DNA of 64,000 bases from Candidatus Pacearchaeota archaeon. GTDB lineage: Archaea; Nanobdellota; Nanobdellia; Pacearchaeales; GW2011-AR1. Location of the stretch: NCBI GenBank assembly GCA_050303855.1, contig JBNLCO010000004.1, positions 7,581-71,580 of the forward strand, written 5' to 3'. The notes beneath the pieces were generated by a model. The model was not told where the DNA came from and did not search any database. It was given only the letters and a program-made list of their open reading frames with translations. This document shows positions 10,631 to 31,560 of this stretch, in pieces. A program made the translations under genes and the position numbers. The first letter of the stretch is position 1. Every line of letters starts with the position of its first letter.

Positions 10631-10665
10631 ATAAAACTTAAATATTTCCGAATATTTCTTATTTG

Positions 10666-10941: not shown

Positions 10942-10942
10942 T

Positions 10943-11292: not shown

Positions 11293-11310
11293 TTTTTAAT
11301 TTTGGGAGAA

Positions 11311-11640: not shown

Positions 11641-11708
11641 TTTATTTTCTTTTTTCTAGAGTTTATAACAATTATTGTATTTTTGAAGATGTTTGGCTAG
11701 GAGTAAGC

Positions 11709-11717
11709 TTTAAAAAT
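11709..11717 (+). promoter_or_regulatory. putative TATA box for tRNA-Asp
   Basis: TTTAAAAAT lies 28-36 nt upstream of the mature tRNA 5' end. Confidence 0.4.
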
Positions 11718-11744
11718 CCGCCAAGATATAGATTTCTATTGTAT

Positions 11745-11816
11745 GCCTCGGTAGTTTAGTGGCTAGAACACGTGCCTGTCGCGCACGAAATCCGGGTTCG
11801 ATTCCCGGTCGGGGCG
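11745..11816 (+). tRNA. tRNA-Asp (anticodon GUC)
   Basis: Hand-folded cloverleaf. Acceptor GCCUCGG/UCGGGGC (two G-U pairs), D stem GUUU/GAAC, anticodon stem CGUGC/GCACG with loop CUGUCGC, T arm CCGGG-UUCGAUU-CCCGG, discriminator G. Confidence 0.9.
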
Positions 11817-11817
11817 T
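11806..11817 (+). repeat. att core copy 1 (tRNA-Asp 3' end)
   Basis: CGGTCGGGGCGT, identical to 22936..22947. Confidence 0.7.
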
Positions 11818-11894
11818 CTCTAGTTTTTGTCTATTTGAAGAAATGTACTCAAAATATACAGACTTCTTTTTAAGAAAGTCTGTTTTAACTACAC

Positions 11895-13049
11895 ATGAAA
11901 ATAGACCCTTACAAACACAAAGAGAGATACTTTAGTTGGAAAGAAAAAGCCATGAAGGATGGAATTCCTGGTTCCTCTGAGACTAATTCTAAGATAATTC
12001 TACAATATCTGAGTGATATGGAGCATGGGATTAATGTTTCTTTGAAAAGTGTTAAAGGCGCTAGAGGTTATCCTAGATTGAATACTCTTAGGGAGAAGAT
12101 GTTGTTTTTCACAAGAAGATTTAAGGAACTTTACGATTTGGACAATATTACGGAAGTTAGTGAGGAACAATTGCTTCTTTTATTTTCAAAGATGAGGAAA
12201 GGGGAGATTTTTAAGAAAGGAGGTCAAAGATATCTTTCTGTGAACTATTTTGTTAAATCATTTAAGTCTTTTTGGCACTGGTGGCAAACTTCTAATAAGA
12301 AGAAAGGGGTTGATGTTCAAGATATAACAATAGACTTAGATTCTAGGGGTGAAAAACCAAAATGGGTTTATTTAACTGAAGAACAAGTTAGAAAACTTTG
12401 TAATAAGGCAAAATATGAATATAGGGTGTTAATCATGTTCTTGTTTGATACTGGAATAAGGGCTCCAACCGAACTGATTAATCTTAAAGTTTCTGATCTG
12501 TATAATGATTGTAAGGAATTGCAGATTAGGGATGAAATTTCTAAAACTTTTGGGAGAAAGATAAAATTAATGCTTTCATCTGATTTGTTGAGACAATATA
12601 TTGCGGATAGGGAATTGAAGGAAAGCGATCACCTCTTTTTAATAAAGCCCGCCACGGTTAATTTGTATTTGAAGAGATTGACTGTTAGAGTTCTTGGTGA
12701 TGGTATGAGTTTGGCAGGTCAGAGATACTCTGAGATAACTATGTATGATTTTAGGCATATTTCCTGTTGTTATTGGTTGCCTAGATATAAATCTGAAAGT
12801 GCTTTGAAGTATCGGTTTGGATGGAAGAAGTCTGATAAAGTGCACTACTATTCGGAACTGCTTGGTATGAAAGACACTATTCAGGAAGAAGATTTATTCA
12901 TAGATAATACTAAAACTGAACTTGAAAGGGAACAAATTAGATTGAGTAAGGAGAATGATATCTTAAAGGAGAAAATGGATGTTATGGGTAGTCAGATGAA
13001 GGAGATCTTTGGTTTAGTTAAGGAAATGGTTGAAAAGACTAAGGTTTGA
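11895..13049 (+). CDS. tyrosine recombinase / phage-type integrase
   Basis: DTGIRAPTEL (Arg box) and YDFRHISCCYW (box II R-H). It lies adjacent to a tRNA, and its N-terminal 120 aa are paralogous to the 24367..24744 fragment. Confidence 0.85.
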   Translation: MKIDPYKHKERYFSWKEKAMKDGIPGSSETNSKIILQYLSDMEHGINVSLKSVKGARGYPRLNTLREKMLFFTRRFKELYDLDNITEVSEEQLLLLFSKMRKGEIFKKGGQRYLSVNYFVKSFKSFWHWWQTSNKKKGVDVQDITIDLDSRGEKPKWVYLTEEQVRKLCNKAKYEYRVLIMFLFDTGIRAPTELINLKVSDLYNDCKELQIRDEISKTFGRKIKLMLSSDLLRQYIADRELKESDHLFLIKPATVNLYLKRLTVRVLGDGMSLAGQRYSEITMYDFRHISCCYWLPRYKSESALKYRFGWKKSDKVHYYSELLGMKDTIQEEDLFIDNTKTELEREQIRLSKENDILKEKMDVMGSQMKEIFGLVKEMVEKTKV

Positions 13050-15135
13050 GCTTGGAAGCTCGTTTTTTAAATTCTTCTCTTAATTCGCTTTCATTTAATA
13101 TTTCTTTTACAATTTCACCTTCAGTTAAATTCTTTTCTAATTCTTCTAAAAGTGATAAATCTTTATTTAAAATTACTTTTTGTGCTTCAGTAAAAAAATT
13201 ATTCTTATATAATTCATCATTAGGGACTCTAAAATATAATTCAGTCAATCTTTTTAAAATATTGAAGTCTAAATAATCTAAAATTACTCCTAAAGGGATT
13301 TTCAAGCTCTTTTTTAATTCTTTAAAATTCTCGTCATCTATTTTTCCAACAATCCAAAACCGCCGAAATTTCCCTATTTCTTTTATTACTTTGCTCATTT
13401 TAGATGAGTTAAGATATCTTTGAAGCTTTGATATTTCTACTTTATTCTTACAAAATGAAGAATCAATCCAATATTTTGAATCCCAAACAGAAATAGATCC
13501 TTCATGATCTATAAAATTTATCCCGTCTGGAATATATTTTCCCCCAAGTTTCTGAGAACTTGGGAAAAATAATCTTAATATTTCCCCTGTATCTCCTTCT
13601 GCAAGATTTCCAAAATTTTCGGGAGTGGCTTCTATAAGCATCTCAATATTTTCTATGGCTTCTCTCCTTGTTTTTTCACTTCTTTCTTTAATTCTTCTAA
13701 AATAAGGGTTTATTACATCCTCTCTAACGCTAAAAGAACTTTCATTTTCAATAAGATCTCCTAGCAAGATTTGTACAAATTCACTATTTTCCAATTTATT
13801 TGTGTCAGACAAACATACAAATATAGGGGTTGTATCTAATTTACTGCATCTATTTAGTATACTTTTTATTGATCTTTTATCATTCTTTTTTATTATAGAA
13901 AGATAAAAAGAAATGAATTTATTTTTTAAAAGATACAAAGATGTTGCCTTTGGATTTAATTTATATAAACCTGTTATTTTTTTACTATTATAACCTTCTT
14001 TTTTAAAAAATTCTAAGATTTTATTTTCTAAGTTTCTGTCGTTTATTTCAAGAGAAAATACATCTTTCTTTTTTGCTATTTGCTCTTTTTCCAATAGACT
14101 TAGAGCTTTTTGGCATAGAAGTATATCGAGCCAAAATAATTGTCCATTGTTTGCAAATAATCTACTTACTTGTGAAGAAAGATCTAGTTTAGAATCTTCT
14201 CCAATAACAATTAAATTATTTTTTATATTATTATTTGTTAGAAATTCTAAATCCCCTTGAGATAGATTTTTATCTGTAAATTTGTATTTTATCCCAATAT
14301 CCTTTGATCCTTTTTTTATTCTTTTTAATGTTCTTTTTATTTTAATCTGAATTAATGAAGATAATCTAAGTTTAAAACTTAATATATACCTTGCATCTTC
14401 AAATAAAAAGGACTTCATCTTATCCACAGCCTCTTTTATTGATTGATTTGTATTAATGGAATTTAATTCTAGTCTAGGTGTTTGTGGGAGATTTGTTTCT
14501 TTGAATCTTATACTTTCTAAATTTTCAAAAGAGACGATCTTATCAAATTCATTTTTCATTTCCTTAATAACAACATTATTTGGAACAAGGATATTAGAAA
14601 TATCTTTAATTTTATTAGATATTTTATTAACTAAACTTACTCCAAACAATCCAGATTGGAAAAAAAGATTAAGTTTGTTCCCTCTTTTTTCAATAATTAT
14701 TGAACGTGTATAATCTATTTTATTATTTGTAGTGAATTTTTGTACTAGTTCTTTTTTTGTAGAATTTTGAACTTTAATTAACGATATAAAATTCTTATTA
14801 TTCCCAAAAATAGAGAATTGTTTGAATCTATGTGTCCCAAGAAATTCTTGCCGGAGTAATTTCAATGTTTTTCTTAATTCTTTAATTCCAAAAGAAAAAT
14901 CTGCCTCAGAAACAAATTGGTTATGGATAAAGCTCCCATAACTTTTTTTCTTAAAAATAAATAATTGTTTTATTAGGTCTTCTACGCCTTTCTTTGTATT
15001 TTGTTGTCTAATTTTTTCTAATAAGGTTTTTTCATCTTCAGTTAAATCTCGGTTATCGTAATAATCCAAGAATTTCTCAAGATTGTCATTAAAAGAACCT
15101 TCTTCTAATAATTCTACATCTTCCCAAAAACCCAT
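13039..15135 (-). CDS. large protein with C-terminal FokI-type (PD-D/ExK) cleavage domain and uncharacterised N-terminal ~500 aa
   Basis: NIEMLIEA..LGGKYIPDGINFIDHEGSISVWDSKYW..EISKLQRYL..RRFWIVGK aligns by eye to FokI YIELIEIA..LGGSRKPDGAIYTV..GVIVDTKAY..ADEMQRYV..FKFLFVSG. Confidence 0.65.
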   Translation of the reverse strand: MGFWEDVELLEEGSFNDNLEKFLDYYDNRDLTEDEKTLLEKIRQQNTKKGVEDLIKQLFIFKKKSYGSFIHNQFVSEADFSFGIKELRKTLKLLRQEFLGTHRFKQFSIFGNNKNFISLIKVQNSTKKELVQKFTTNNKIDYTRSIIIEKRGNKLNLFFQSGLFGVSLVNKISNKIKDISNILVPNNVVIKEMKNEFDKIVSFENLESIRFKETNLPQTPRLELNSINTNQSIKEAVDKMKSFLFEDARYILSFKLRLSSLIQIKIKRTLKRIKKGSKDIGIKYKFTDKNLSQGDLEFLTNNNIKNNLIVIGEDSKLDLSSQVSRLFANNGQLFWLDILLCQKALSLLEKEQIAKKKDVFSLEINDRNLENKILEFFKKEGYNSKKITGLYKLNPKATSLYLLKNKFISFYLSIIKKNDKRSIKSILNRCSKLDTTPIFVCLSDTNKLENSEFVQILLGDLIENESSFSVREDVINPYFRRIKERSEKTRREAIENIEMLIEATPENFGNLAEGDTGEILRLFFPSSQKLGGKYIPDGINFIDHEGSISVWDSKYWIDSSFCKNKVEISKLQRYLNSSKMSKVIKEIGKFRRFWIVGKIDDENFKELKKSLKIPLGVILDYLDFNILKRLTELYFRVPNDELYKNNFFTEAQKVILNKDLSLLEELEKNLTEGEIVKEILNESELREEFKKRASKLKP

Positions 15136-15168
15136 AGAATTATATTCTTTAGAGATATATAGAATTTT

Positions 15169-15771
15169 CTATTTCCACCTAGCTTTCTTCAAAGGCGTTC
15201 CGTTTAGCTTTTTACCTAAAGTATCTTTTAAATTATGGATGTCTTGTTCTTCAGTCCAAACAAAAAACCAATTCTTGTTTTTTTCACACCATTTTTCATA
15301 AGCCTTGATTTTCTTTTCCATTTTTCCATTATAATCATCATTATCTAATCCAAAATGTTCAATAATTATTATGTTGTCCCCATCTTCAATTACAAAATCA
15401 GGACGATATTCTTTATTATCTAATGTAAGCAAATCTTCATATCTTGGATGTAATCCGTTTGCTTCAAAGAAATATAATAAGAGTAATTCGGATTTTGACT
15501 TAACTTTTTGTCCATTAAAATAAAATCTCCCTTCAAATTTATCTCTAAAATCTGTTTCCTTTTTGTTTTTTACATAATCTATTTGTTTTATTTTTTTCTT
15601 TTCTTCTTGTTTTTCTTTCCAATGTTCTTTACAAAGATTATGTCCTTCTGGGACTTCTATTCCGCAAACTTCACAAGTAGGTTTTTGCTTTTCTTTTTCA
15701 TTACAATCAAAACAAAGTTCAAACCAAGGTTTCTTTGGATTTCCACATTTTGGGCATTCTGTTTTTGACAT
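15169..15771 (-). CDS. zinc-ribbon plus PD-(D/E)XK nuclease-fold protein
   Basis: The N-terminus has CPKC..CFDC and CEVC..CKEH pairs. The C-terminus has SKSELLLLYFFEANG..YRPDFVIEDGDNIIIIEHFG, a restriction-endonuclease-like core. Confidence 0.55.
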   Translation of the reverse strand: MSKTECPKCGNPKKPWFELCFDCNEKEKQKPTCEVCGIEVPEGHNLCKEHWKEKQEEKKKIKQIDYVKNKKETDFRDKFEGRFYFNGQKVKSKSELLLLYFFEANGLHPRYEDLLTLDNKEYRPDFVIEDGDNIIIIEHFGLDNDDYNGKMEKKIKAYEKWCEKNKNWFFVWTEEQDIHNLKDTLGKKLNGTPLKKARWK

Positions 15772-15813
15772 TTTATATCTATTAATAGGTATTCATACGT
15801 AGTATAAAAGATT

Positions 15814-16044
15814 ATGTGTAGTTATTCACATATGCATAGGGATATACTTATGATTACAGAGGAAATTCTTAAAACTTTATCTAAGAATAAGGAATTATCA
15901 ACAAGACAAGTATCTTTGAAAGTTAAAACTCATAGGGCAGTTGCTTTAAGATCCCTAGAGTTTCTTAAAAGAATAAATTTGGTTAAAGAAAGAGAAGGTA
16001 CAGAGACGAATCGGGTTGAGAGGCTGTTTAGTTTGAAGAATTAA
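15814..16044 (+). CDS. small winged-helix DNA-binding protein (putative regulator)
   Basis: ILKTLSKNKELSTRQVSLKVKTHRAVALRSLEFLKRINLVKE follows an HTH-plus-wing pattern. The start is uncertain, as several in-frame Met codons are present. Confidence 0.45.
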   Translation: MCSYSHMHRDILMITEEILKTLSKNKELSTRQVSLKVKTHRAVALRSLEFLKRINLVKEREGTETNRVERLFSLKN

Positions 16045-16385
16045 ATTCCCAAATAATTCTTTAAAATTAAGGCGAGGCTGAAAGTTATTATAAATGTAGC
16101 AAATATTTTAATAAGAAACTTTTTGAATTTTTCTTTATCATAGTACATTAATCTTTCTGTTCTTTCTATATTTTGAGAGATATCAATTACCCATTTATAA
16201 GAAGCATAAATCAACAATATATTAAAAATAAATAATATTAATTTTCCTATAGATTCAAAGAGAATCAAAAAACCTGACTCTTTAATTGCTGGTAAAAGAT
16301 AATCTGAAATTATTGATAATTCTGTAGGTAAAGCAAATCCCAAACCAATAGCTTCCTTTATGATTATTTTTTGGGTTTTATTCAT
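16041..16385 (-). CDS. small 3-TM membrane protein translationally coupled to res
   Basis: Its ATG overlaps the res stop codon (ATGA, 16382..16385). Three hydrophobic helices. No family recognised. Confidence 0.55.
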   Translation of the reverse strand: MNKTQKIIIKEAIGLGFALPTELSIISDYLLPAIKESGFLILFESIGKLILFIFNILLIYASYKWVIDISQNIERTERLMYYDKEKFKKFLIKIFATFIITFSLALILKNYLGI

Positions 16386-18652
16386 AGTTCTTTGAGTTTA
16401 TTCAATATTTCGTCAATATTTTTATTATGAACTAAAAAGAAATGGAGGTTTTTATCTAAGGAACTCCAGATATTTCCAATTTCTTCTTTATATTGTGTGT
16501 CTTCATTGCTTATCCTATCTTCTCCTTTCCATTCTAATGCAATAATGTTCCCTTTTTTGGTTAATGCTATAAAATCTGGATAGAATTTATTCTTTTTCCA
16601 CCCTTGGATAAAGAAAGGGTCTTTCTTTTCTCTATTTCTTACCCAAAATTTAATATTATTTAATCCATCCAAATCTAGTCTTTGAACAAAATTCATTTCC
16701 TCTTTGTTTAATTTATCAACATTTTCATAATAGTTTTTGTTCCATTTTCTATCTGGTTCTTGACTTAAAATGATTGTTTCTGGAAATTTATCCAATTTCA
16801 TTACAGATATCTTCTTTTCTTTTAACATCTTTTCGAATTTGCCTTTGGAATAATCTTCTAAAATCTTTAATATTAGATCGCTTAGTTTTTCCAATAGGAT
16901 GAATCTGTTTACTGAGAGTTCTGAGATTGTTTTTTCTTTTAATTGTTCTTCAATTATTTTTCTAATGAACTTTACTTTATCTGGCTTATCTAGTAGTGTA
17001 AATCTCAATTTCTTATCTAACCATTGTATTAGTTCTTCTTTTGAGAAGTTTTTATCTTTGTAGGTTATATGGAGTGTTTGTTGAGCACTTCTTACCCATT
17101 TGTCTTTATCTTGGATATCTATTATTGCCTTGCCATCTCCATCATAAAACATCTCAAATTCAAATTTGTAATTTTGTTTTGAGAGTTCAAAGTCTTCTCC
17201 AATTAATTCTTCAAAGGATAATTTTTCTTTATCAAGGGACATTATTGGGATAAATAAATCTTCTTTGAATGATCTACTTATTTCTAGCTCATATTTTTGA
17301 TTTTTGTCTGTAGAATTAATTAAATCTAGTTTACTATATCCATTATTTTCTAGTCCTGAGATTATTTGATTTGCTGATTCATTAAAATTTTTAGCTGACG
17401 CAAAGATATAGCTTCTATTTAAAACTTCATTTTCCTTTTTTTGAGCATTAGGCATCCTTAAGACCCTTCCAATTATTTGTTCAACTGCAATTTTTGAACC
17501 GATGTTTGCCACTGAAATTAAAACATATGCAAAGGAACAGTCCCAACCTTCTGCTAGGGCATTTATTGTTATAATATATCTAATCTTACATTTTTGACTA
17601 AATAAGTTTATTCCTTCTAATTCATTCTTATTTGAGGTCTTTATTGCTATTTCCTCTTCAGGTATTTTTCTTTCTTTAATTAAAAAATCTTTGATTTTGT
17701 CTACAGTTACGCAATCTTTGTCTTTTTTATCCGATTCCGCTTGTAGAAGGGCTATGGGTCTTATATATTCATTTTTATTTTTCTTTGCTTGTTTTTCTAA
17801 TTCAATTCTTTCATTAACTCCTTTGATTATTGAATTTTGCCATTGTGCTGTACTTTCTAAGACTATTGGGAGTTTTACCATTTGTTCTTCTTTTAATTCT
17901 GAGGAATGTATCTCAACTAAAATATTGCTTTCTGTTCTAGGGGTTGCTGTATATTCTATAATAAAACTAGGATTTAGTTCCTTTAGAAATTCAATTGATA
18001 ATCTTGTTTTTGTTTTATGGCCCTCATCTATAATGATTAATGGGTTTGATATTCTTATTACGTTTGCTAGTGAATTAATTATTGTATTTTCTTCATCTTT
18101 TTCTAAGAATTCTTTTTCTTCTAAGTTTTCAAAATGACTTAGTAATGCCCCATTTTCTTGATAAACTTTATATTTATTTTGAAGTGCTCTTTCTTTTCTA
18201 AATGCTTCTAAACTAGAAATTATTATACATAAGTTGTCTTGCACATCTTCTTTTCTTATTCTTAACGCTTCCTCATTTGAGAAAATTCTTATATTATTAT
18301 CAAAAGCTTCATCCAATACTTTTCTATGCCAATCGTTTTTATCTTTAAACTTTCTTAGGGTTTGAGATTTTATGGATTCTGATGGAACAAACCACATTAT
18401 GATTCCCTTCTCCATTTTATTTTTTAAAACAGAGGACATTATTTCAACAACGGAATGGCATCCTACAAGAGTTTTTCCTCCTCCTGTAGGTATTTTCATG
18501 CAAATGAAAGGTGTTTCGTTAAAGAAATCCGACTTGTAAGGTTTATCTGTAATGCCCATAAATGCATATTTAGTTCCAACCCTTTCTAATTCTTTAAGAT
18601 AATTTCTCAATATTTCAATTGACTTTTGTTGATATTTTTTTAGTTCTACCAT
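16382..18652 (-). CDS. res: Type III restriction enzyme Res subunit (SF2 helicase plus C-terminal PD-ExK nuclease)
   Basis: PTGGGKT (motif I), IIIDEGHK (II), YTATP (III), QIIGRVLR (VI). The C-terminal YPDFIALTKKGNIIALEWKG is the nuclease core. Confidence 0.85.
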   Translation of the reverse strand: MVELKKYQQKSIEILRNYLKELERVGTKYAFMGITDKPYKSDFFNETPFICMKIPTGGGKTLVGCHSVVEIMSSVLKNKMEKGIIMWFVPSESIKSQTLRKFKDKNDWHRKVLDEAFDNNIRIFSNEEALRIRKEDVQDNLCIIISSLEAFRKERALQNKYKVYQENGALLSHFENLEEKEFLEKDEENTIINSLANVIRISNPLIIIDEGHKTKTRLSIEFLKELNPSFIIEYTATPRTESNILVEIHSSELKEEQMVKLPIVLESTAQWQNSIIKGVNERIELEKQAKKNKNEYIRPIALLQAESDKKDKDCVTVDKIKDFLIKERKIPEEEIAIKTSNKNELEGINLFSQKCKIRYIITINALAEGWDCSFAYVLISVANIGSKIAVEQIIGRVLRMPNAQKKENEVLNRSYIFASAKNFNESANQIISGLENNGYSKLDLINSTDKNQKYELEISRSFKEDLFIPIMSLDKEKLSFEELIGEDFELSKQNYKFEFEMFYDGDGKAIIDIQDKDKWVRSAQQTLHITYKDKNFSKEELIQWLDKKLRFTLLDKPDKVKFIRKIIEEQLKEKTISELSVNRFILLEKLSDLILKILEDYSKGKFEKMLKEKKISVMKLDKFPETIILSQEPDRKWNKNYYENVDKLNKEEMNFVQRLDLDGLNNIKFWVRNREKKDPFFIQGWKKNKFYPDFIALTKKGNIIALEWKGEDRISNEDTQYKEEIGNIWSSLDKNLHFFLVHNKNIDEILNKLKEL

Positions 18653-18653
18653 T

Positions 18654-19418
18654 TTAATTAATTGAATCCTCTGCTGATTTAATCATTTCTCTTATAATCT
18701 CCTTTATTTCATTGGCATCTTCATTTTTATAATTTTCAGAATGCACATATCTTGCAGAATCTCTCAAACTTTTTAGTTTAGATAAAATAGTGCTAAATTC
18801 TGGTTTAATGTTTCCTAAATTTGCCCAACTAGTCAATTTTTTCTCTATTTTTCCATGAATGCGGAACGATTTGTCATTTAAAATATCCTTATCTGGCAAT
18901 ATTAACAAAATACTCTTCGCAGATAATTCCGCAGTTGCAAAGGCATTTTCATAGAATGCCCTTAATCTATTCTTTTCTAAACTATCAATAGCAGTTTCAT
19001 AAAATTCTTTTGATGCTTCAATATGCTCTTTTATTTTCTCTTTATTATATCTAGCATCAAAGGAGATAATCCAATTATTTTTAAAAAGCAAGAGAGTTAT
19101 ATGACCACAATTAACATCTTCGTCGGTTAATTCAACTCCCCCAATCTCACCTATATCAGATTCATAGACTAATTCTCCTTTTTGTATGTCTCTAGTGGCT
19201 TTTCCATGTATAATCGCTTTGACTTCTTCATTTAACCTAATATCGTTTTTTCCTTTATCTAAGTTAAAAACAATTTGTATTCTTGTTATCGGGATTCCTT
19301 CTTTTATTGTCCTTCTTTTTATTCTTCTTTCTATCTCAGGGTTAACGAAGATGTCCATTACTTGTTGAAAAACTCTTTGTTTTGTTTCATCATCAAAATT
19401 TAATTTTTCTTCTACCAT
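18654..19418 (-). CDS. HEPN-domain protein embedded between mod and res
   Basis: The C-terminal ~120 aa follow the classic HEPN helical pattern (EASKEFYETAIDSLEKNRLRAFYENAFATAELSAKSILL..HGK..LKSLRDSARYVH). RDSARYVH fits Rx6H. The N-terminal ~130 aa are unassigned. Confidence 0.55.
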   Translation of the reverse strand: MVEEKLNFDDETKQRVFQQVMDIFVNPEIERRIKRRTIKEGIPITRIQIVFNLDKGKNDIRLNEEVKAIIHGKATRDIQKGELVYESDIGEIGGVELTDEDVNCGHITLLLFKNNWIISFDARYNKEKIKEHIEASKEFYETAIDSLEKNRLRAFYENAFATAELSAKSILLILPDKDILNDKSFRIHGKIEKKLTSWANLGNIKPEFSTILSKLKSLRDSARYVHSENYKNEDANEIKEIIREMIKSAEDSIN

Positions 19419-19419
19419 C

Positions 19420-20952
19420 TTAGTAAACTTTCACCTCATAAGGGATTTGTTTAAATTGTATGTTGAATTTTTCTAAAGTGTCCTCATCAACCATACAAAA
19501 GTCGGCATAAATGACTTTTTTATTCCTTGTTTTTTTAATTTTAGATAAGAATGACTTATTTAGAACATTTTTGTATTTTTCTTTATAAATTAAATAATAT
19601 TCTGTTTCTCCAGTTTCCCCTATGAAATTTTTATCAATTTGTTTTTTATCTATGTTTGTTTGAGTTTCTGTAAAGTAAATATAAGTTGCAAATTGGTTAA
19701 AGTCACAAGTTTCTTCTATTTGCCCGTTTTCATCAAATAGGGGTTTATCTAATTCGCAATATTCAAATCCATCTTTATAACCATATTTTTCTATTGCTCT
19801 TTTAATTCTTTCAGCTGTTATTTTTTTTGCAATATCATCTTCCATTTCAATTAAAATAAATTTTCTGTTTCCCCCATCTTCTTTATTTAAATCTAAAACT
19901 GCGTGTCCTGTTGTCCCTGAACCTGCGAAAGAGTCTAAGATTATATCTTCCCCAGAAGAGCTTAAATGAATAATTCTTTTCAAAAATGAAACTGGTTTTG
20001 GTGTGTCGAATTCCTTACTCCCCTCAAAAAGTTTCATTAACTCTTTTGTTCCCTCAGTTGCGGTTCCAACATCATCCCAGATTGTAAAAGGGTTTGTGCC
20101 TTTTTCTAATGCCTCAGACTTAAATCTTTTGTATTGAGGTTTTGAATTACCTGTCTTGCCAAACACAATACGATTGTCATTTAATGCCTCAAGATATTTG
20201 TCTTTTGTAAATCTCCAATGTCTACCTTTTGGAGGGACATAAATTTTCCCTGTGTTTTGATTTTTTATTTCGTATTCTAAATTTGGTCTTATTGCGGGAG
20301 CATCCATTGGATCAGCCACCCAATCCCCTCTAGGATCATTGTCGGGGTTTGAAAATTTACTATCATCTATCCCAAGAGAATTTAACTTCAATCCATTTCT
20401 TTTCTTAGCAAAACAAAGAGTATAATTATGGGATAATGAAACATCTATATCATTCTGGCTCGACTTTCTATGTTTCCAAATAAAATCTGCGATAAAATTT
20501 TCCTCTCCAAAAATCTCATCCATCAAAAGTTTCAGATGTGATTGTTCATGGTCATCAATACTTACAAAAATGACTCCATCCTCACTTAATAAATCTCGAA
20601 GAAGTTTCAATCTTGGGTACATCATACAAAGCCATTTATCATGCCTACATAAATCCTGAGTTTCTCCTCCAACAACTTTTCCAAGCCATTTCTTTATTTT
20701 TGGAGAATTAACTTTGTCATTATAAACCCAATTTTCATTTCCGGTGTTATAAGGGGGATCTATATAGATGCATTTTACTTTTCCAATATAATAAGGCATA
20801 AGTGCTTTAAGCCCTTCTAAATTATCTCCTTTTATAATTAGATTTTGAGAATCCCCTACAGAATGAACTTTAATCTTTTTTAATAGTCTAAATGGTACTT
20901 CTTTGTCATGATTAACAACCGCTTCTTTTCCAATCCAGTTTAAGGTGGGCAT
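19420..20952 (-). CDS. mod: Type III R-M Mod DNA methyltransferase (N6A/N4C, beta class)
   Basis: IYIDPPYNTG (motif IV), HDKWLCMMYPRLKLLRDLLSEDGVIFVSIDD and DSFAGSGTTGHA (motif I). Confidence 0.9.
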   Translation of the reverse strand: MPTLNWIGKEAVVNHDKEVPFRLLKKIKVHSVGDSQNLIIKGDNLEGLKALMPYYIGKVKCIYIDPPYNTGNENWVYNDKVNSPKIKKWLGKVVGGETQDLCRHDKWLCMMYPRLKLLRDLLSEDGVIFVSIDDHEQSHLKLLMDEIFGEENFIADFIWKHRKSSQNDIDVSLSHNYTLCFAKKRNGLKLNSLGIDDSKFSNPDNDPRGDWVADPMDAPAIRPNLEYEIKNQNTGKIYVPPKGRHWRFTKDKYLEALNDNRIVFGKTGNSKPQYKRFKSEALEKGTNPFTIWDDVGTATEGTKELMKLFEGSKEFDTPKPVSFLKRIIHLSSSGEDIILDSFAGSGTTGHAVLDLNKEDGGNRKFILIEMEDDIAKKITAERIKRAIEKYGYKDGFEYCELDKPLFDENGQIEETCDFNQFATYIYFTETQTNIDKKQIDKNFIGETGETEYYLIYKEKYKNVLNKSFLSKIKKTRNKKVIYADFCMVDEDTLEKFNIQFKQIPYEVKVY

Positions 20953-20986
20953 GATTAGTAATATTAATAATCATATTTAATATTTT

Positions 20987-21925
20987 CTACTTAATCCAAT
21001 CTCTTAAATTTGAAGGAGGCTTATTTCTCTTCTCCATTTCTTTTTCAATAATTGTTATCACTTCTTGATCCAAAGTAAATATTATTTCCTGTTTACATAT
21101 AAAACACTCGGAATTTGATGTTTTTACCTTTAATTTATAAAAATATCCAAATGAGCTAATTAATCGGCTTTTTCTTATTGTAACGATGTATTTTGCTATA
21201 TCTAAATCTGTTTGAAAGTCATCTTTATTGGAAGAAATGTATTTCAACATATAATTTAGGGTAAATCTTACCGTTCCTTGCTTTGAAACATGTATATTTA
21301 CTCTTCTTTTTGAAGATTGTTTGAAAAGTCTTACAATTTTGGAATCTTTTTGCGTTCTAACCTTATTATCTATAGATCTCCCGTAAATTATTGCATGTAA
21401 ATGAATATTCCAATTTCCTTCTGTGCCTTTTGTTTCTATTACATATAAGCCTCCTTTTATTCTCTGTTTGATATAGTCATGTCTTAAGAACTTTGAAAAG
21501 GATTGTTTAAGGTGTTTCATTCCTTCTTTTAAGTCTTCATAATTTTTTGGGGATATTGTAAGAAAATATATGAATTCTTTCCTATTTTGATTTATTCCTT
21601 TGAGTAATGGTAGATACTTTCTAGATATCTTTCTTTTTCTTATTTTTGAGCATTTAGGACACGTTCTAAGGTTACAATGATGTTCTAGTGGGAAAATCCT
21701 ATTTCCGCATCCACAAGAAGCCATTGCTCTAAATCCTGATTTTACTCCACACTTCAATAAAGAATTTAGTGATTTCTCTGGATATCCTAATTCCAATAAA
21801 TGTGAAGTTATTGCACTATTACCAAGTAAAAGGTTGGCTTCGCCAACCGGGGGAAAATCTTGAACGCGAGACTCCTGACTAAAGTCTACGGAGTCTCGCT
21901 CTAAAGATATAGAATTTTTTAACAT
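20987..21925 (-). CDS. rep: rolling-circle replication initiator (HUH, Rep_1/pC194-like) with N-terminal zinc finger
   Basis: FIYFLTISP (motif 1), WNIHLHAIIY (HUH), LNYMLKYISS (catalytic Tyr motif) and KCG..CGCG..HHCNLRTCPKC. The track start at 21946 is TTG, and the first ATG is at 21925. Confidence 0.7.
   Translation of the reverse strand: MLKNSISLERDSVDFSQESRVQDFPPVGEANLLLGNSAITSHLLELGYPEKSLNSLLKCGVKSGFRAMASCGCGNRIFPLEHHCNLRTCPKCSKIRKRKISRKYLPLLKGINQNRKEFIYFLTISPKNYEDLKEGMKHLKQSFSKFLRHDYIKQRIKGGLYVIETKGTEGNWNIHLHAIIYGRSIDNKVRTQKDSKIVRLFKQSSKRRVNIHVSKQGTVRFTLNYMLKYISSNKDDFQTDLDIAKYIVTIRKSRLISSFGYFYKLKVKTSNSECFICKQEIIFTLDQEVITIIEKEMEKRNKPPSNLRDWIK
21866..21899. promoter_or_regulatory. perfect 10-bp inverted repeat (candidate RCR origin hairpin) inside the rep 5' end
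   Basis: GCGAGACTCC-N14-GGAGTCTCGC. The loop TGACTAAAGTCTAC contains an inner GACT/AGTC palindrome. A second GC hairpin, GGTTGGC-TTC-GCCAACC, lies at 21832..21848. Confidence 0.4.
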
Positions 21926-21979
21926 AGTCGGAAAACAAGATTCCAACTTATAACCGACCTGTATAAACTTTGTACAAAA

Positions 21980-22180
21980 TTAGTTTTTTTGTAAGATTTT
22001 GTCCATCTTTTTTTCTATTCTCATCAAAATATCTTTCTCTTTTTCTTTGCCTAACCATTCATCAAAGATTTTTCTAATTAATTCCGCGAGAGAAAGTCCT
22101 TCTTCTTTTGCCCTCTCTTTTAATTTTTTCTCGAGAGCAATTTTCATACTTATACGATAAGTATAATTATTCCCGGGCAT
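21980..22180 (-). CDS. ribbon-helix-helix (CopG/Arc-like) protein
   Basis: YRISMKIALEKKLKERAKEEGLSLAELIRKIFDEWL has the beta-alpha-alpha RHH pattern. It lies immediately upstream of rep. Confidence 0.7.
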   Translation of the reverse strand: MPGNNYTYRISMKIALEKKLKERAKEEGLSLAELIRKIFDEWLGKEKEKDILMRIEKKMDKILQKN

Positions 22181-22289
22181 CTTTCAACCCCTGAAAAGCA
22201 TTTAGTAACTCATCTAATTGAGAATTAAGCTCTTTTAATTTAGAAATAATTTCTTGACCAATATCTGTACTGGGATTTTTGTTTTCCAT
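22167..22289 (-). CDS. possible 40-aa coiled-coil ORF overlapping the RHH start
   Basis: My translation is MENKNPSTDIGQEIISKLKELNSQLDELLNAFQGLKDARE*. It overlaps the RHH ATG by 14 nt and is below the track size cutoff. Confidence 0.25.
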   Translation of the reverse strand: MENKNPSTDIGQEIISKLKELNSQLDELLNAFQGLKDARE

Positions 22290-22415
22290 TAGCGTTCTTA
22301 ATAATTTTAATTGAACGCTACCCAGTCGCTATACACGTCGTATTTTTTTGTGTTTGGTAACTCGACCCCGTGTATCCAGTTAATAGAGTTAGTTAAGTTG
22401 TATTTAAAAATTTTA

Positions 22416-22434
22416 TGTGTATAATTGATACACA
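22416..22434. promoter_or_regulatory. perfect 7-bp inverted repeat TGTGTAT-N5-ATACACA
   Basis: Lies in the divergent intergenic region between the RHH-rep operon and the plus-strand membrane-protein genes. Confidence 0.35.
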
Positions 22435-22468
22435 TATCTATAAATATTATTTAATTTTAGGAAGAACA

Positions 22469-22849
22469 ATGGAAGAGTTTATTGAAGATATTGCAGAGAA
22501 GGGTTTGGGTTGGTTGGAAAAGAATTGGAAAAGGGTGTTAATATTTCTAGCAATTGTAATTTTATTTGGAGGTATTTTGGCTTCTATAAAATCTGATGTT
22601 AAAGATACTGAAGAGGAAATGAAAAAAGAATCGGTTGGAGTAATTGTTGAGACTTTTACTGAAACTGGAGATGCATTAACAGAAACTATTGATGATCCTG
22701 CTCTCAAAATGGAAATAAAAGGAATGTGGATATTTTTAGGATTAATGTTTGCGTTAGTTGTTGTTTTAATGATTGCAAAAGCATTCAAACCAATTTATGA
22801 TGCTCTCAGTGCTTGGCAAATTTCTGGAAGAGTTGTGCACAGAATTTAA
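22469..22849 (+). CDS. hypothetical 2-TM membrane protein
   Basis: Hydrophobic helices VLIFLAIVILFGGILASI and MWIFLGLMFALVVVLMIA. I prefer the ATG at 22469 to 22415, which overlaps the inverted repeat. Confidence 0.45.
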   Translation: MEEFIEDIAEKGLGWLEKNWKRVLIFLAIVILFGGILASIKSDVKDTEEEMKKESVGVIVETFTETGDALTETIDDPALKMEIKGMWIFLGLMFALVVVLMIAKAFKPIYDALSAWQISGRVVHRI

Positions 22850-22935
22850 GAAAAATATATAAACTTCTTATGTATTAATCTTGTATAAATAAAGTCGTAG
22901 TACATTTCTATGACTCGACAAAAACTATCTCAGTT

Positions 22936-22947
22936 CGGTCGGGGCGT
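22936..22947 (+). repeat. att core copy 2
   Basis: CGGTCGGGGCGT, identical to tRNA-Asp positions 11806..11817. Confidence 0.65.
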
Positions 22948-23017
22948 TCTCATAGTGTGAAACATTTAGGGTTTTCTTGGAAGTAATCTTTAAATAAATT
23001 AGATTAAGTGTTTTTTC

Positions 23018-23737
23018 ATGAATAATAAATCCAATTCAGAAAAACCTCTTAATTGGAATTGGACAATTTCTCTAATTATTATCACCTTGGTTTTAGCAAT
23101 CTTAATTAATGTATTTCTTGTTCCTGATCGAGAGGTTCCTGACAATTTGCCTAGGATAGTCCAAGATAATATTACTTATATTAATCTTAGTCAAAATGAT
23201 TTAGAAAATAATATTCAAGAAAGTATAAATTCTGGTTCATTTGCTGAAATCTTGTGGAAAATTATTTATCTTGGTTCTGGAAGGGATAAGCTTTGTTTTG
23301 AAAGCTTTGGAGGTTCCCCTGAATTTAACGTTTCAGTTAACAATGACTTTGGAGAATTTTATAATTTGACCAATAAAAAGTGTTTTAGCATTCCTAAACG
23401 AAAGGATAAGACTACTTTTAATTTAAAATATCATCTAATGTTAACTATTCCTCAAATTGAGTCTGGGAAAATTGTTGATAAAAGTGAGTGCCTACCAGAA
23501 ACAATAGATGAAAGCATAAATGAAACTTGTATTTTAGATGGAGTTTCTTATATTTGTCACCCTTGTTATACTTCTCCTGTGAGAGTTGAGTACGGGCCCT
23601 TGCCTGAAATAAAGACTTATTTTGAAGCTAATCTTTTCCATAAATTTATTAAATTCCTTTTTGTTTTTATTGTAACATCTATGTTTATTAAAGAATTGGT
23701 TGAAACTTTTGATTTTTTTAAAAAAAAAGAAAAATGA
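23018..23737 (+). CDS. hypothetical membrane-anchored Cys-containing protein
   Basis: N-terminal TM (WTISLIIITLVLAILINVFLV), a Cys-bearing ectodomain and a C-terminal TM. Confidence 0.5.
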   Translation: MNNKSNSEKPLNWNWTISLIIITLVLAILINVFLVPDREVPDNLPRIVQDNITYINLSQNDLENNIQESINSGSFAEILWKIIYLGSGRDKLCFESFGGSPEFNVSVNNDFGEFYNLTNKKCFSIPKRKDKTTFNLKYHLMLTIPQIESGKIVDKSECLPETIDESINETCILDGVSYICHPCYTSPVRVEYGPLPEIKTYFEANLFHKFIKFLFVFIVTSMFIKELVETFDFFKKKEK

Positions 23738-24324
23738 ATCTGGACAAAATAAATAACCTTTGGAAGAAACTTGTTTCTTGGTATGAAAAGAGAACAAAGG
23801 ATAGCAAGAAGGAAATCAATAGAAGTTTAGATTTTCTTGAATCTGATCTTTTCTATTTTTTGAAGTTGATCTTTACCAAAAAGGAAATTTATGAGGATGA
23901 TCTAATTACTAAGAGGCATTTGAGCCTTGAGCGGTTTAATTTATTGAGGGATTTATCAATATCTAGAGGTTATGTTATTCCAATGGTTGCCTCTGTCCCT
24001 CGTTTTGGGACCGTTTATGGGATTACTTCTGAAGGAATTGATTATCTCTTGGGATCTGAAAAAATACGCGCTGAGAGTAAAAGTTCGGATACTATAAAAT
24101 GGGCTACAATTGTTTTGGCAATCTCCGCTTTTGTTCAATTGGTGGATATATGGGTCAATAAACCTGAGACTAAGAGTGCTGTTCTAAATTTGATCTGGAA
24201 AACAATTGGCTTAATACTTGAGATCATTAGACAAGCTTTACCTTTTATAATTGTTTTCTCTATTTTGATTTTAATCTTAAAGATTATTAAAAAAAGGAGG
24301 AGCAAAAAAGTATTACTTAACTAG
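23734..24324 (+). CDS. hypothetical protein with C-terminal TM helices
   Basis: Its start overlaps the previous stop (ATGA). There are two C-terminal hydrophobic helices. Confidence 0.5.
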   Translation: MNLDKINNLWKKLVSWYEKRTKDSKKEINRSLDFLESDLFYFLKLIFTKKEIYEDDLITKRHLSLERFNLLRDLSISRGYVIPMVASVPRFGTVYGITSEGIDYLLGSEKIRAESKSSDTIKWATIVLAISAFVQLVDIWVNKPETKSAVLNLIWKTIGLILEIIRQALPFIIVFSILILILKIIKKRRSKKVLLN

Positions 24325-24366
24325 ATTTTATACAACCTAGATAATAGCCTTCTTCACATGAATGTT

Positions 24367-24744
24367 CTATTTGAGGTTGATCATAACAAAATAGTTTGTA
24401 GAAAGATATCTTTCTCCATTTTGCTTAACTATTTCCCCTTTTTGCATTTTTGAAAATAGTAAGACCAATTGGTCTTCTGTTATTTTGGTTATATTGTCCA
24501 AACCATATATTTCCTTAAATTTTCTAGAGTAAAAAATCATCTTTTCCCTTAATGTGTTAAGCCTAATATAACTTATTCCACCTTTTACGTTTTTTAGAGA
24601 TACATTTAGCCCGTGTTCCATATCTGAGAGGTATTGAATTGTTAAATCCGAATTTTCCTTACTCATTTCTGGGATTCCCGTTTCTCTAACCTTTTGCATC
24701 CATGCTTTGAATCTCTCTTCATGTTTGTAGGGATCAATTTTCAT
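24367..24744 (-). pseudogene. truncated tyrosine-integrase N-terminal fragment
   Basis: MKIDPYKHEERF..IQYLSDMEHGLNVSLKNVKG..LNTLREKMIFYSRKFKEIYGLDNIT.. is collinear with residues 1-~120 of the 11895..13049 integrase. It ends before any catalytic motif. Confidence 0.75.
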
Positions 24745-24846
24745 AAATAATTTTGGTGAATTTCTTTATAAGAAACTTGTAGCAAGGTTGTACATGTACC
24801 TGGTTTGTATGGGAAAATTTAAGTATATTCTTATACCAAAAAAATA

Positions 24847-25662
24847 ATGGATAATGCCCAAACTTATTATATTTTCTCAGACGAATCTGGATATTTTGAT
24901 AAGAATAATTTTTATTTAAGATCTAGTTTTATGATTCTTGCAAAGGAATATCAAGAGTTAACTAGAGATTTTTTGTCTTTGAAGGATCAATTTAATATTC
25001 CTCGAAATAAAGAATTTAAGTACCATTTTTTGTACCAGGTTAAACAGTATCAAGAAAAAGGGGTGAATAAGATGAGTAAAGATGTAGAATATTTTAAAGA
25101 TATTCCTTATGCTAGTTTAATGGATTTTGTTAGATCTTCTATAAGATTGTTATCTAAATATGATGTTCAAATCCATAATATTTTTACTAAGTTTGTTCTT
25201 AAAAGATTTAAAACTCAGGAGGATATAGAAACGGATTTTATGAAAGTTCTTTTAAGTCAAATTGAAATGGATCTTCAAAATAAGACTACTCCTTCTTTTG
25301 GAGTTGTTTTTTATGATGATACCGAAATAAGAGATACTCTTTGTAAAGCATATAATCAGATATTTATGGAGGCTAAGTTTATTGAAAAATATTCTCAAAT
25401 AAAGGATTCTCTATCTTTTGATATATCTACTTACTCTACAGGAATACAACTTGTCGATTACATTGTTGGAACAATTCATAGTTTTCTTAGAGGTTATAAA
25501 GAAGGAACAGAAATATTTCATGAAGATATTTCTCCTAGATTGAGAAGAAAGAAAGGCTATACTTTAGATAAAGTGGGTTTTATTCCAAGATATCTTGCAG
25601 GAGCTCCATTTTTAGAGGAGGTTTCTAATGAAATCTTTACTAGGATAGAGAATAAATCTTGA
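24847..25662 (+). CDS. DUF3800-family protein
   Basis: N-terminal YYIFSDESGY and C-terminal GIQLVDYIVGTIHSF match the DUF3800 hallmark (DESG ... Q-x-x-D). Confidence 0.55.
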   Translation: MDNAQTYYIFSDESGYFDKNNFYLRSSFMILAKEYQELTRDFLSLKDQFNIPRNKEFKYHFLYQVKQYQEKGVNKMSKDVEYFKDIPYASLMDFVRSSIRLLSKYDVQIHNIFTKFVLKRFKTQEDIETDFMKVLLSQIEMDLQNKTTPSFGVVFYDDTEIRDTLCKAYNQIFMEAKFIEKYSQIKDSLSFDISTYSTGIQLVDYIVGTIHSFLRGYKEGTEIFHEDISPRLRRKKGYTLDKVGFIPRYLAGAPFLEEVSNEIFTRIENKS

Positions 25663-25692
25663 TTATTAACTTGGGATAATAATCTTTATAAT

Positions 25693-26238
25693 ATGTTGTT
25701 TGTAGAATTATTAATGAATAAAAAAGGTCAAGAAGACATAGGAAAGATTCTTGGAGCAATATTTGGAATTTTTATTCTTTTTATTTTTGTAATTATAATA
25801 ATCAATACTTTTGCTACAGTTAATAATTCAATAACTCAAGATCAATGTAGACCTATTCAAGAACAATTGGGAAATTGTCAAATACAACTTAATTCTACTT
25901 TAATAGCGGTCAATCAAACTGAAGGTCTTTTGGATCAATGCAATAGGGATTATGGGGAATTGGAGAATAACACAATAACAAGAAAAGATTTTGAAGAGAT
26001 TAAAGGATATTTTGATTTGACTAAGAATGAAATAAATTCTATCAATAACAAAATAAGTGAGGTAAATAGAGTTTATAATTTTTATACTATCAAAAACTAT
26101 TCTTTTGCTCTAAATATTGTACTTGGGATTGAAATTATAAGTTTGTTATTCTTCAAGAACGAAGTATTTTTGATAATTATTAACTGGGTAAAAAGAAAGA
26201 GAAAGAAAAAACAAAAAAAAGAAGAGCCAAAGGAATAA
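25693..26238 (+). CDS. hypothetical membrane protein with central coiled coil
   Basis: N-terminal TM, a heptad-like middle region, a C-terminal TM and a K/R tail. Confidence 0.5.
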   Translation: MLFVELLMNKKGQEDIGKILGAIFGIFILFIFVIIIINTFATVNNSITQDQCRPIQEQLGNCQIQLNSTLIAVNQTEGLLDQCNRDYGELENNTITRKDFEEIKGYFDLTKNEINSINNKISEVNRVYNFYTIKNYSFALNIVLGIEIISLLFFKNEVFLIIINWVKRKRKKKQKKEEPKE

Positions 26239-26267
26239 ATCCCGAATGTTTCACACTATGCTAACCT

Positions 26268-26275
26268 GCGGTCGG
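26268..26275 (+). repeat. att core copy 3 (degenerate)
   Basis: GCGGTCGG followed by AA instead of GG. It lies 8 nt after the AATGTTTCACACTATG motif. Confidence 0.4.
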
Positions 26276-26333
26276 AATACCTGTACATGTCTTGTACAAT
26301 AAATTATAAAAGGTTAAAGTTACTAAGTTATCT

Positions 26334-27137
26334 ATGAAAACTCAACTAGTAGAATTCAAAAATACAAAAAATGAAACTCTTAGGGGAATATTATTAAATC
26401 CTAAAAAAGAATCTTCTAAAGGAGTTATTTTTATTAGTGGATTTGAAAGAAATGGAACAACGGAACCAAAATTTAAAGATTTATCCGATAGATTATATAA
26501 TTTGGGAGTCCCTTCAATGAGATTTGATTTTACGGGATTAGGTCTCTCAGATGGAGATTTTAAAGATACTACTTTAGGAAACTGGACAGAGGAATTTACA
26601 AATGCTTATGGCTTCTTTAAGTCTACTACAAAGGTTGAAGAAATCTATATTGTAGGTCATAGTTTAGGAACTTGTGTGTTAGGAAAATACCTAGAACAAC
26701 ATCCAGAAAAGATAGAGAAAGCTATTTTAATATCCCCTGCACTTAATCAAAAAGATTTAATGAGGTATTGGTTTGTTTCTGGAAAAATGAAAAAAGAAGA
26801 TCCAAATAAACTAATTGATTGGAATAATTATGAAGAGTTTCTAGATGAAAAAGAATTTCAAAAAGATGCTAATAAGGCGGATAAAATGTCTAAATATAAT
26901 TTCATTGAGGCAGAATATTTTAAAGAGTGTAGTAAACTAGATTTATCAAAAAACTTTCTAGATTATAAGAATAAATTTTTACATATTCATGGAGAAAAAG
27001 ATATTGCTGTTCCAATTGAAAGTTTAGAAATTGAATTTTCTAATAAAATTATTGTTAGTGATGGAGACCATGATATGGAAAGACCAAATCAAAGAATTCA
27101 ATGGATTGATAAAGCTGTTAAATATTTAATTGAATAA
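26334..27137 (+). CDS. alpha/beta-fold hydrolase
   Basis: Nucleophile elbow VGHSLG, a late HGEKD and a GDHD His region. Confidence 0.8.
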   Translation: MKTQLVEFKNTKNETLRGILLNPKKESSKGVIFISGFERNGTTEPKFKDLSDRLYNLGVPSMRFDFTGLGLSDGDFKDTTLGNWTEEFTNAYGFFKSTTKVEEIYIVGHSLGTCVLGKYLEQHPEKIEKAILISPALNQKDLMRYWFVSGKMKKEDPNKLIDWNNYEEFLDEKEFQKDANKADKMSKYNFIEAEYFKECSKLDLSKNFLDYKNKFLHIHGEKDIAVPIESLEIEFSNKIIVSDGDHDMERPNQRIQWIDKAVKYLIE

Positions 27138-27166
27138 AAATCCTTAATGTTTCACGATATACTTGT

Positions 27167-27177
27167 TTCGGTCGGGG
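27167..27177 (+). repeat. att core copy 4
   Basis: TTCGGTCGGGG, identical to 22934..22944. CGGTCGGGG matches the tRNA-Asp 3' end. Confidence 0.5.
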
Positions 27178-28600: not shown

Positions 28601-28601
28601 A

Positions 28602-31559: not shown

Positions 31560-31560
31560 A

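Follow-up and report, generated by a model that had tools for sequence, protein, structure and literature searches.

The 64,000-nucleotide stretch of DNA analysed here (the window, positions 7581-71580 of contig C4) belongs to a 758-kb genome assembled in 11 contigs, with a G+C (GC) content of 32.7% and an estimated completeness of ~91%. It contains the only tRNA-Asp gene of that genome, a complete tRNA-Asp(GTC) called by ARAGORN at 11744..11818 on the plus strand, and this tRNA is followed by a tract of about 15 kb that carries an integrase gene, a restriction-modification (R-M) system, a replication initiator and further copies of the tRNA 3′ end. An earlier interpretation made without database searches (the sequence-only reading) had proposed that this tract is a tandem array of three integrated elements, E1, E2 and E3, with the tRNA gene as their integration target. 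Relatives of the integrase come almost exclusively from metagenome-assembled genomes (MAGs) labelled Pacearchaeota, Woesearchaeota or Nanoarchaeota, and the host is therefore taken to be an archaeon of this group within the DPANN lineages (Diapherotrites, Parvarchaeota, Aenigmarchaeota, Nanoarchaeota along with Nanohaloarchaeota).

Core repeats and inverted arms

Four copies of the tRNA 3′-end core, all on the plus strand, lie where the sequence-only reading had placed them. Copy 1, CGGTCGGGGCGT at 11806..11817, is an exact 12-mer inside tRNA-Asp that runs from the end of the T-stem through the 3′ acceptor strand and discriminator base to the base after it, and would serve as the left attachment (att) site, attL, of E1. 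Copy 2, the identical 12-mer at 22936..22947, would be both the right site (attR) of E1 and the attL of E2. Copy 3 is degenerate and consists of CGGTCGG only (26269..26275, within the GCGGTCGGAA previously reported at 26268-26277), and copy 4, CGGTCGGGG at 27169..27177 (previously delimited as TTCGGTCGGGG at 27167-27177), would be the distal attR at the end of the array.

With 0.004 occurrences expected, the 12-mer is found five times in the genome, and no dinucleotide shuffle of the window yielded two copies of it. Three of the five copies are tRNA 3′ ends, those of tRNA-Asp, tRNA-Glu(TTC) and tRNA-Glu(CTC), the last of which has a 103-nt intron and is overlooked by the default tRNA scan; the other two, at 22936 and 1.5 kb past tRNA-Glu(TTC) outside the window, are each downstream of, and co-oriented with, a tRNA having the same 12-nt end. 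The 9-mer CGGTCGGGG occurs six times, copy 4 being the sixth. Judged by the criterion of the sequence-only reading, background frequency across the genome, copy 3 fails by itself: its only shared part is the 7-mer CGGTCGG, of which the genome has 11 copies where 12 would be expected. Copy 3 is rescued as an att site by the 24-nt arm that precedes its core: the arm-plus-core pattern TGTTTCACNNTATN{5,11}GGTCGG matches the genome at copies 3 and 4 only, and returned zero matches both in 400 other genomes of the order and in the reversed control.

The arms form inverted pairs. The E1 left arm, TAGTTTTTGTCTATTTGAAGAAATGTACT (11821..11849, plus strand), begins 3 nt after copy 1, holds the integrase-family motif TTTTTGTCTA and is an inverted repeat of the E1 right arm (22899..22927, plus strand), which is complementary to it at 24 of 29 positions and ends 8 nt before copy 2. 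The E2 left arm, CATAGTGTGAAACATTTAGGGTTT (22951..22974, plus strand), begins 3 nt after copy 2, and the E2 right arm, AAATCCCGAATGTTTCACACTATG (26237..26260, plus strand), is complementary to it at 21 of 24 positions and ends 8 nt before CGGTCGG. A second right arm of E2 type, AAATCCTTAATGTTTCACGATATA (27138..27161, plus strand; 19/24 to the E2 left arm), ends 7 nt before copy 4, and directly after copy 3 lies a family-type left end, that of E3, AATACCTGTACATGTCTTGTACAA (26276..26299, plus strand), which has no inverted partner and gave a non-significant inverted-repeat test. When scored against 20000 random pairs of 45-nt genome segments, the E1 and E2 arm pairs (16.5 each) were equalled by none, and the pairing of the copy-4 arm with the E2 left arm (14) was reached by two. 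The arms have no other occurrence in the genome.

If a newcomer enters a tRNA end that already serves as the attL of a resident, then the junction left between the two should be a hybrid, with the right arm of the newcomer on one side and the left arm of the resident on the other. Copy 2 supports this prediction: to its left lies the E1 right arm and to its right the E2 left arm, each being complementary to the distal arm of its own element rather than to the other. The same anatomy predicts the products of excision: the attP of an E1 circle would read ...GACAAAAACTATCTCAGTT-CGGTCGGGGCGT-CTCTAGTTTTTGTC... and the site after E1 loss tRNA...GATTCC CGGTCGGGGCGT TCTCATAGTGTGAAAC..., an E2 circle would join ...TTTCACACTATGCTAACCTG CGGTCGG... 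to TCTCATAGTGTG..., and in a fully empty site the tRNA core would be joined to TTTTCTTTAATTTATC. A 21-mer of the E1 attL/attP junction had 0 matches in viral contigs and 0 in metagenome contigs.

Genes of E1, E2 and E3

E1 (11818-22947, 11.1 kb) is bounded by the exact 12-nt repeat and begins, as had been noted, with a full-length tyrosine integrase next to the tRNA (11895..13049, plus strand, 384 aa; PF00589, E=5e-10, 39.9 bits against a cut-off of 27.1). The integrase gene starts 78 nt past the core, and its product aligns over residues 1-384 with many of its relatives, is only distantly similar to solved or curated recombinases (best PDB match Pyrococcus XerA, E=0.003) and makes E1 the sole carrier of a full-length integrase of this family in the genome. 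Downstream on the minus strand are a 698-aa protein to which no function is assigned (13039..15135; no family match above threshold) and a 200-aa zinc-ribbon protein with a PD-(D/E)XK-like C-terminal part (15169..15771; DZR, and PADLOC PDC-S68 and HEAT_CxxC_PDDEXK), a homologue of which is present in the related element L033; a 76-aa open reading frame (ORF) on the plus strand (15814..16044) has tblastn matches in the related elements L033, L035 and L055. A type III R-M block, identified with Pfam and PADLOC, occupies 16041..20952 on the minus strand and comprises Mod (19420-20952; PADLOC MTase_III, 1e-176), a HEPN protein (18654-19418) between Mod and Res, Res (16382-18652; PADLOC REase_III, 1e-82) and, at the end of the block, a 114-aa membrane protein (16041-16385). 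It is followed by a rolling-circle replication initiator of the HUH type (20987..21946, minus strand; Rep_1, PF01446, 46 bits against a cut-off of 33.2), a member of the family that includes pC194 and pUB110, in whose translation the HUH and Tyr motifs are readable as HLHAII and YMLKY. A ribbon-helix-helix (CopG-like) protein (21980..22180, minus strand; PF01402, a weak match at E=0.002) and a 144-aa ORF without a family match (22415..22849, plus strand; ORF list) complete the element.

With full-length integrase, type III R-M system and Rep_1 initiator in place, E1 agrees with its earlier description as an apparently intact element holding int, defence genes and rep. Excluding the integrase gene its GC content is 28.4%, compared with a minimum of 28.6% and a median of 32.6% across 10-kb stretches of the genome, and its composition is on a par with that of the lowest-GC stretch. 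Ten E1 and E2 proteins had no PHROG match to a virion gene, the one match obtained being weak and to an unknown, and no relatives of the integrase or Rep were found in IMG/VR. The lack of any detected virion hallmark gene led us to reject a provirus reading, and this lack, together with the absence of integrase and Rep relatives from IMG/VR, is why we read E1 as an integrative plasmid-like element; it may still be able to excise.

E2 (22948-26275, 3.3 kb) has an exact left core and well-matched arms, and what is left of its integrase gene is an inverted N-terminal fragment, in line with its earlier designation as decayed. Two orphan ORFs of 239 and 196 aa (23018..24324, plus strand; ORF list) come first. 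The former begins 71 nt past the core, the position expected for an integrase gene, and a search among 5.8 billion proteins returned one distant match only, without context. The truncated integrase paralogue that had been noted in this segment (24367..24744, 125 aa) shows 66% amino acid identity to residues 1-120 of the E1 integrase and 71% nucleotide identity over 271 nt, lies on the minus strand, which the sequence-only reading had not stated, and retains ~100 nt of its own upstream region (24745-24850). It is followed on the plus strand by the cargo of E2, a DUF3800 protein (24847-25662; PF12686) and a 181-aa ORF to which no function is assigned (25693-26238). A core-like AAGTTTGGGCAT upstream of the inverted fragment was rejected as a further att site, since no tRNA of the genome has such an end and the sequence is the coding start of the DUF3800 gene. 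Palindromes of the GTACATGTAC type (CCAGGTACATGTACAACC; CCTGTACATGTCTTGTACAA) are present at 24745-24850, upstream of the fragment, and again at 26276-26310, to the right of copy 3. Similar ones precede the integrase genes of the closest relatives (e.g. L040, CCTGTACATGTACAGG), and they are candidate integrase operators or arm-type sites.

E3 (26276-27177, 0.9 kb) contains a single gene, as reported, for a 267-aa alpha/beta hydrolase (26334..27137, plus strand; Pfam Hydrolase_4 and Abhydrolase_1), which starts 59 nt past CGGTCGG, where an integrase gene would sit. Its standing as an element in its own right is weaker, as the arm at its right end is of E2 type and fails to pair with its own left end. 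In copy 3, CGGTCGG is followed by AATACCTG, and many members of the integrase family have GCGT and then AATACC right after the tRNA; because the family reads GCGT|AATACC, copy 3 fits a full core that has lost GGCGT and is followed by a genuine family-type left end. This left end and the second E2-type right arm are what speak for E3 as a separate element, which may be a chimera produced by deletion. Most simply, E3 would be a third and older insertion shortened by deletion, possibly a chimera of two. E2 lacks a working integrase and keeps both att ends, as expected of a remnant, whereas E3, with its unpaired ends and a 7-nt core at copy 3, does not fit that description.

The integrase family and its attachment sites

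We confirmed 171 relatives of the E1 integrase in the genome collection, kept the loci of the best 80 of them (57-67% identity) and examined the 66 that had enough upstream sequence. At half of these (33/66) a co-oriented tRNA gene ends no more than 260 nt from the integrase start, the tRNAs being those for Asp (10), Glu (10), Ser (6), Gly (3), Gln (2), Tyr (1) and Leu (1). Another seven have a tRNA-like core between inverted arms with no tRNA, which is attP-like and the appearance that would be expected of a free element or of a tandem of like elements; four resemble hybrid junctions, and simple search left 22 unresolved. The arms of L112 are nearly perfect (score 30.5). Downstream of the tRNA the family consensus is GCGT or GCAT, ~5 nt (often AATAC), TTTTTGTCTA or TTTTGGCAT, and a GGG run. 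Complete att pairs with inverted arms and cores of 12-14 nt delimit L100 (tRNA-Gly, 6.9 kb) and L081 (tRNA-Gln, 5.3 kb), and a probable 12.1-kb element at tRNA-Glu in another MAG has the E1 gene order int, orf76, res, mod, rep. Judged from these loci the arm-core-arm layout is a trait of the family, of which we found no published description.

Two loci of the collection deserve separate mention. In L048, ~60-200 nt upstream of the integrase start (2355), two att cores ~90 nt apart are each followed by a family left arm (CGGTTCGGGCGT-AATACCTTTCTGGCAT ... CGGTGCGGGCGT-ATTACCTTCTTGGTAT), which resembles a nearly vacant slot within a tandem array of another MAG. In L025 (G005:C14) a family-type left arm, AGTATCATTATGGTATTTTAATGAGA, follows tRNA-Asp and a 292-aa non-integrase ORF starts 75 nt past the tRNA; because this ORF follows tRNA and left arm, L025 is read as an integrase-less cassette in the tRNA-proximal position. 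The same genome, G005, has a second tRNA-Asp on another contig, with an integrase adjoining.

Probable origin of the array and known systems

Taken together these observations make it probable that 11806-27177 is a tandem array and arose as elements integrated, one after another and site-specifically, at the 3′ end of a single tRNA-Asp gene, as the sequence-only reading had proposed. In the mechanism we envisage, a tyrosine integrase of a DPANN-wide family would recombine a short core of a circular element, lying in attP between inverted arms, with the final ~12 nt of the tRNA, which are identical to it. Integration would restore the tRNA, with the displaced copy of the core ending up at the distal end of the element, and each newcomer would target the regenerated tRNA end and insert between the tRNA and the older residents. 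E1 would then be the newest arrival, an intact, integrative plasmid-like element that has, besides a rolling-circle Rep, a ribbon-helix-helix protein and a type III R-M system, further cargo of nuclease-like character; E2 would be older, its integrase reduced to the inverted fragment, and E3 would be the stump of a still older E2-like element, probably cut by a deletion in which core copy 3 lost 5 nt as well. Accretion is supported because copy 2 carries both the E1 right arm and the E2 left arm. The exact repeat at the ends of E1 and the increase of decay with distance from the tRNA across the elements agree with it, as does the comparison with relatives: at the genus level, no homologue of any E1-E3 ORF of at least 90 aa was found at 11 same-genus tRNA-Asp loci, the hydrolase has no same-genus orthologue, and the DUF3800 protein is absent from 24 same-genus genomes. 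The integrase itself was found in two of 15 same-genus genomes, in one of which tRNA-Asp again adjoins it.

Several observations weigh against this interpretation. The same-genus relatives are distant (55-77% amino acid identity), and absence from them does not date the insertions. No excised circle was seen, and among near-identical strains none was found with an empty or differently filled tRNA-Asp site: exact-protein look-ups led to one Logan sample only, and the Logan contig, the only other assembly of the strain, is 100% identical with the arrangement unchanged and shows no variant path at its breaks (its ends at 26336/26347 and 35351). The inverted, mid-element position of the integrase fragment in E2 is not predicted by the simple model; it needs an inversion or a separate event and is left unexplained. 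The right flank of copy 3 scores no better than random against the copy-4 arm, which means that the E3 ends are not mutual inverted repeats, and the core of copy 3, as stated above, is at background frequency by itself. Finally, E2-type arms were found in no other genome or metagenome and no intact E2-type element is known: an E2 arm 15-mer had 34 matches in IMG/VR and an E2 arm-plus-core pattern 61 in metagenomes, none with a related att context on inspection, those examined being unrelated and mostly higher-GC or coding sequence.

The array may also be part of something larger. Directly after the last att copy begins a cluster of seven genes for nicotinamide adenine dinucleotide (NAD) salvage and ADP-ribose metabolism (27332-33965), namely pncB, a gene for a 292-aa unknown protein, nadE, and genes for a NUDIX protein, an ADP-ribosylglycohydrolase, an NAD kinase and an NrtR-like regulator, which could be the oldest member of the array or belong to a composite island extending to ~34.2 kb. 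In the closest syntenic relative, G015, the order is serS, orf93, tRNA-Asp, one 253-aa ORF, GIY-YIG, CSD and DEAD helicase, with the homologues of the last three genes (here at 34217, 34666 and 34876) beginning ~1.3 kb after tRNA-Asp in place of the 22.4 kb found here, and in G015, G009 and G017 alike these conserved neighbours are 1.3-2 kb from the tRNA. The extra DNA relative to G015 extends past copy 4 to ~34.2 kb and includes the NAD cluster, and pncB is absent from all 30 relatives searched. However, 27180-60191 holds no core-like copy (up to 3 mismatches in 12), no att site or arm is present at the far end of the cluster, and the cluster lacks an integrase and has a host-like GC content of 33.1%. 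The arm-like stretch to the right of copy 4 is weak and was rejected as the left arm of an ‘E4’ (14/20 match, 16-nt offset, out of register in the alignment). We regard this larger island as possible but unlikely and do not count the NAD cluster in the array, while noting that it belongs to the same hypervariable interval.

Other signs of change surround the tRNA in this genus. The orientation of tRNA-Asp relative to serS varies (co-oriented here and in G015; opposed in G012, G011, G005 and G001), which suggests inversions around the hotspot, and the DNA between serS and tRNA-Asp is itself variable, ranging from 0.7 to 6.7 kb (window 9350-11818 compared with L024, L025, L027 and L030). A small lysine/arginine-rich ORF (33970-34170, minus strand) is kept in relatives; the G009 homologue is found immediately upstream of tRNA-Asp and its relative orientation is the opposite one, which points to a rearrangement around the tRNA. 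Several assemblies break exactly at tRNA-Asp.

A second alternative concerns how E2 and E3 came to be where they are. Rather than decayed elements they could be integrase-less cassettes with functional att ends, installed, or moved along with a neighbour, by an integrase of the E1 type acting in trans, in the manner of bacterial elements resembling cis-mobilizable elements (CIMEs), which can be mobilised in cis or in trans. In favour of such cassettes, the arms of E2 are as well kept as those of E1 (21/24 and 24/29), core copy 2 is exact, and E2, E3 and the G005 cassette each have an ORF that starts 55-75 nt past the core, in the place of the E1 integrase gene; moreover, accretion and cis-mobilisation are documented in bacteria (PMC5704250). 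The genome also holds a further integrase-less att-flanked unit 1.1-2.7 kb past the end of the window (G000:C4:72686-74286), where the 3′ end of tRNA-Glu(TTC) is the same 12-mer, an exact copy follows 1.5 kb downstream, short inverted arms adjoin the cores (GTTACTATTTCGAACG / CGTTCGGAAATGTAAC) and the two ORFs (176 and 278 aa) include no integrase. However, plain accretion and decay already predict the order of the array, with the intact element by the tRNA and the remnants distal, E2 must once have held an integrase gene, given the fragment of one inside it, core copy 3 is damaged, the arms of E3 form no matching pair, and arms of the E2 type were found in no other genome. We consider the cassette interpretation rather improbable.

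If E2 and E3 were instead a single 4.2-kb element (22948-27177), its true attR would be copy 4, and copy 3 would be an internal duplicate or pseudo-att site. This would account for there being one E2-type left arm and two E2-type right arms, for the significant pairing of the copy-4 arm with the E2 left arm, and for the unpartnered right flank of copy 3. However, the E2 left arm fits the copy-3 arm (21/24) better than the copy-4 arm (19/24), and a separate third insertion is for this reason the likelier of the two; the core-proximal CACACTATG is identical with copy 3 only, and the AATACCT... to the right of copy 3 resembles a family left end directly after a core. The chance that E2 and E3 are one element seems to us slim. 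That only E1 is real, and that copies 3 and 4 with their arms are chance likenesses or post-gene regulatory or terminator motifs, is very improbable, since even though CGGTCGG is at background frequency and both arms come directly after stop codons, there are three 24-nt arm copies, each a fixed 3-8 nt from a co-oriented core, unique in the genome, absent from the 400 other genomes and significant at p ≤1e-4.

Mobile elements of DPANN archaea are poorly catalogued, and this 15-kb array makes up ~2% of a genome of ~0.75 Mb and holds the type III R-M system of the cell along with other candidate defence genes. The locus offers a clean annotated example of att anatomy for an integrase family found in more than 100 Pacearchaeota and Woesearchaeota MAGs, and the 12-nt core and arms can be used to delimit islands and to spot free forms by an arm-core-arm attP; this anatomy can also help to explain the frequent assembly breaks at tRNA-Asp and tRNA-Glu. 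A bolder generalization, which we put forward as a speculation with little likelihood, is that a few tRNA 3′ ends (here those of Asp, Glu-TTC and Glu-CTC, with their common 12-nt core) act as exchange platforms in Pacearchaeota-type DPANN archaea. A single conserved integrase family specific to DPANN would install entire integrative plasmids there, and small cassettes without an integrase, having arm-core ends and a first gene in the usual place of the integrase gene, would be stacked, swapped and perhaps re-mobilised in trans by it. If true, archaea would have their own counterpart of accretion and cis-mobilisation, or something loosely analogous to a cassette array.

Among archaeal systems, integrases of the pNOB8 type (‘type II’, non-partitioning) keep their gene intact after integration, target tRNA genes and reside on plasmid-like elements. 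E1 is alike in all three respects; crenarchaeal att sites, however, measure 29-69 bp (PMC6563490), compared with 12 nt in E1. Closer in length are the thaumarchaeal att sites, with a median of 17 bp and a minimum of 8 bp, and the thaumarchaeal cryptic integrated elements (CIEs) described in the same work (PMC6563490; Krupovic et al. 2019) resemble E1 in their make-up of integrase, replication protein and R-M system. One of them, NitAQ6f-E2, combines as E1 does a tyrosine integrase with an HUH rolling-circle initiator, but for its Rep, homology to the Rep of the sphaerolipovirus SNJ1 is described (PMC6563490), whereas the E1 Rep matches Pfam Rep_1, and the host phylum differs.

Arrays formed by re-use of att sites by tyrosine-recombinase elements are known in archaea and bacteria (PMC6563490, citing Krupovic & Bamford 2008, Krupovic et al. 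2010 and Das et al. 2013), and the tRNA-Asp array shares with them the tRNA 3′-end target, the short direct repeats and stacking in one orientation. In Streptococcus, ICESt1 and ICESt3 show accretion with decayed CIMEs (Pavlovic et al. 2004; Bellanger et al. 2011; reviewed in PMC5704250), and there too an intact element stands in tandem with integrase-less remnants that keep their att sites, with hybrid att junctions between them; the array described here differs in having no conjugation module. Thus tRNA 3′ ends as integration targets, att sites that are short in mesophilic archaea and arrays from site re-use (PMC6563490), as well as CIME accretion (PMC5704250), are already known, the locus follows them, and it leaves the accepted view of how such elements work unchanged. 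What is new is the DPANN host lineage, the integrase family and the anatomy, a 12-nt core common to three tRNA genes and set between inverted arms ~3 and 8 nt away.

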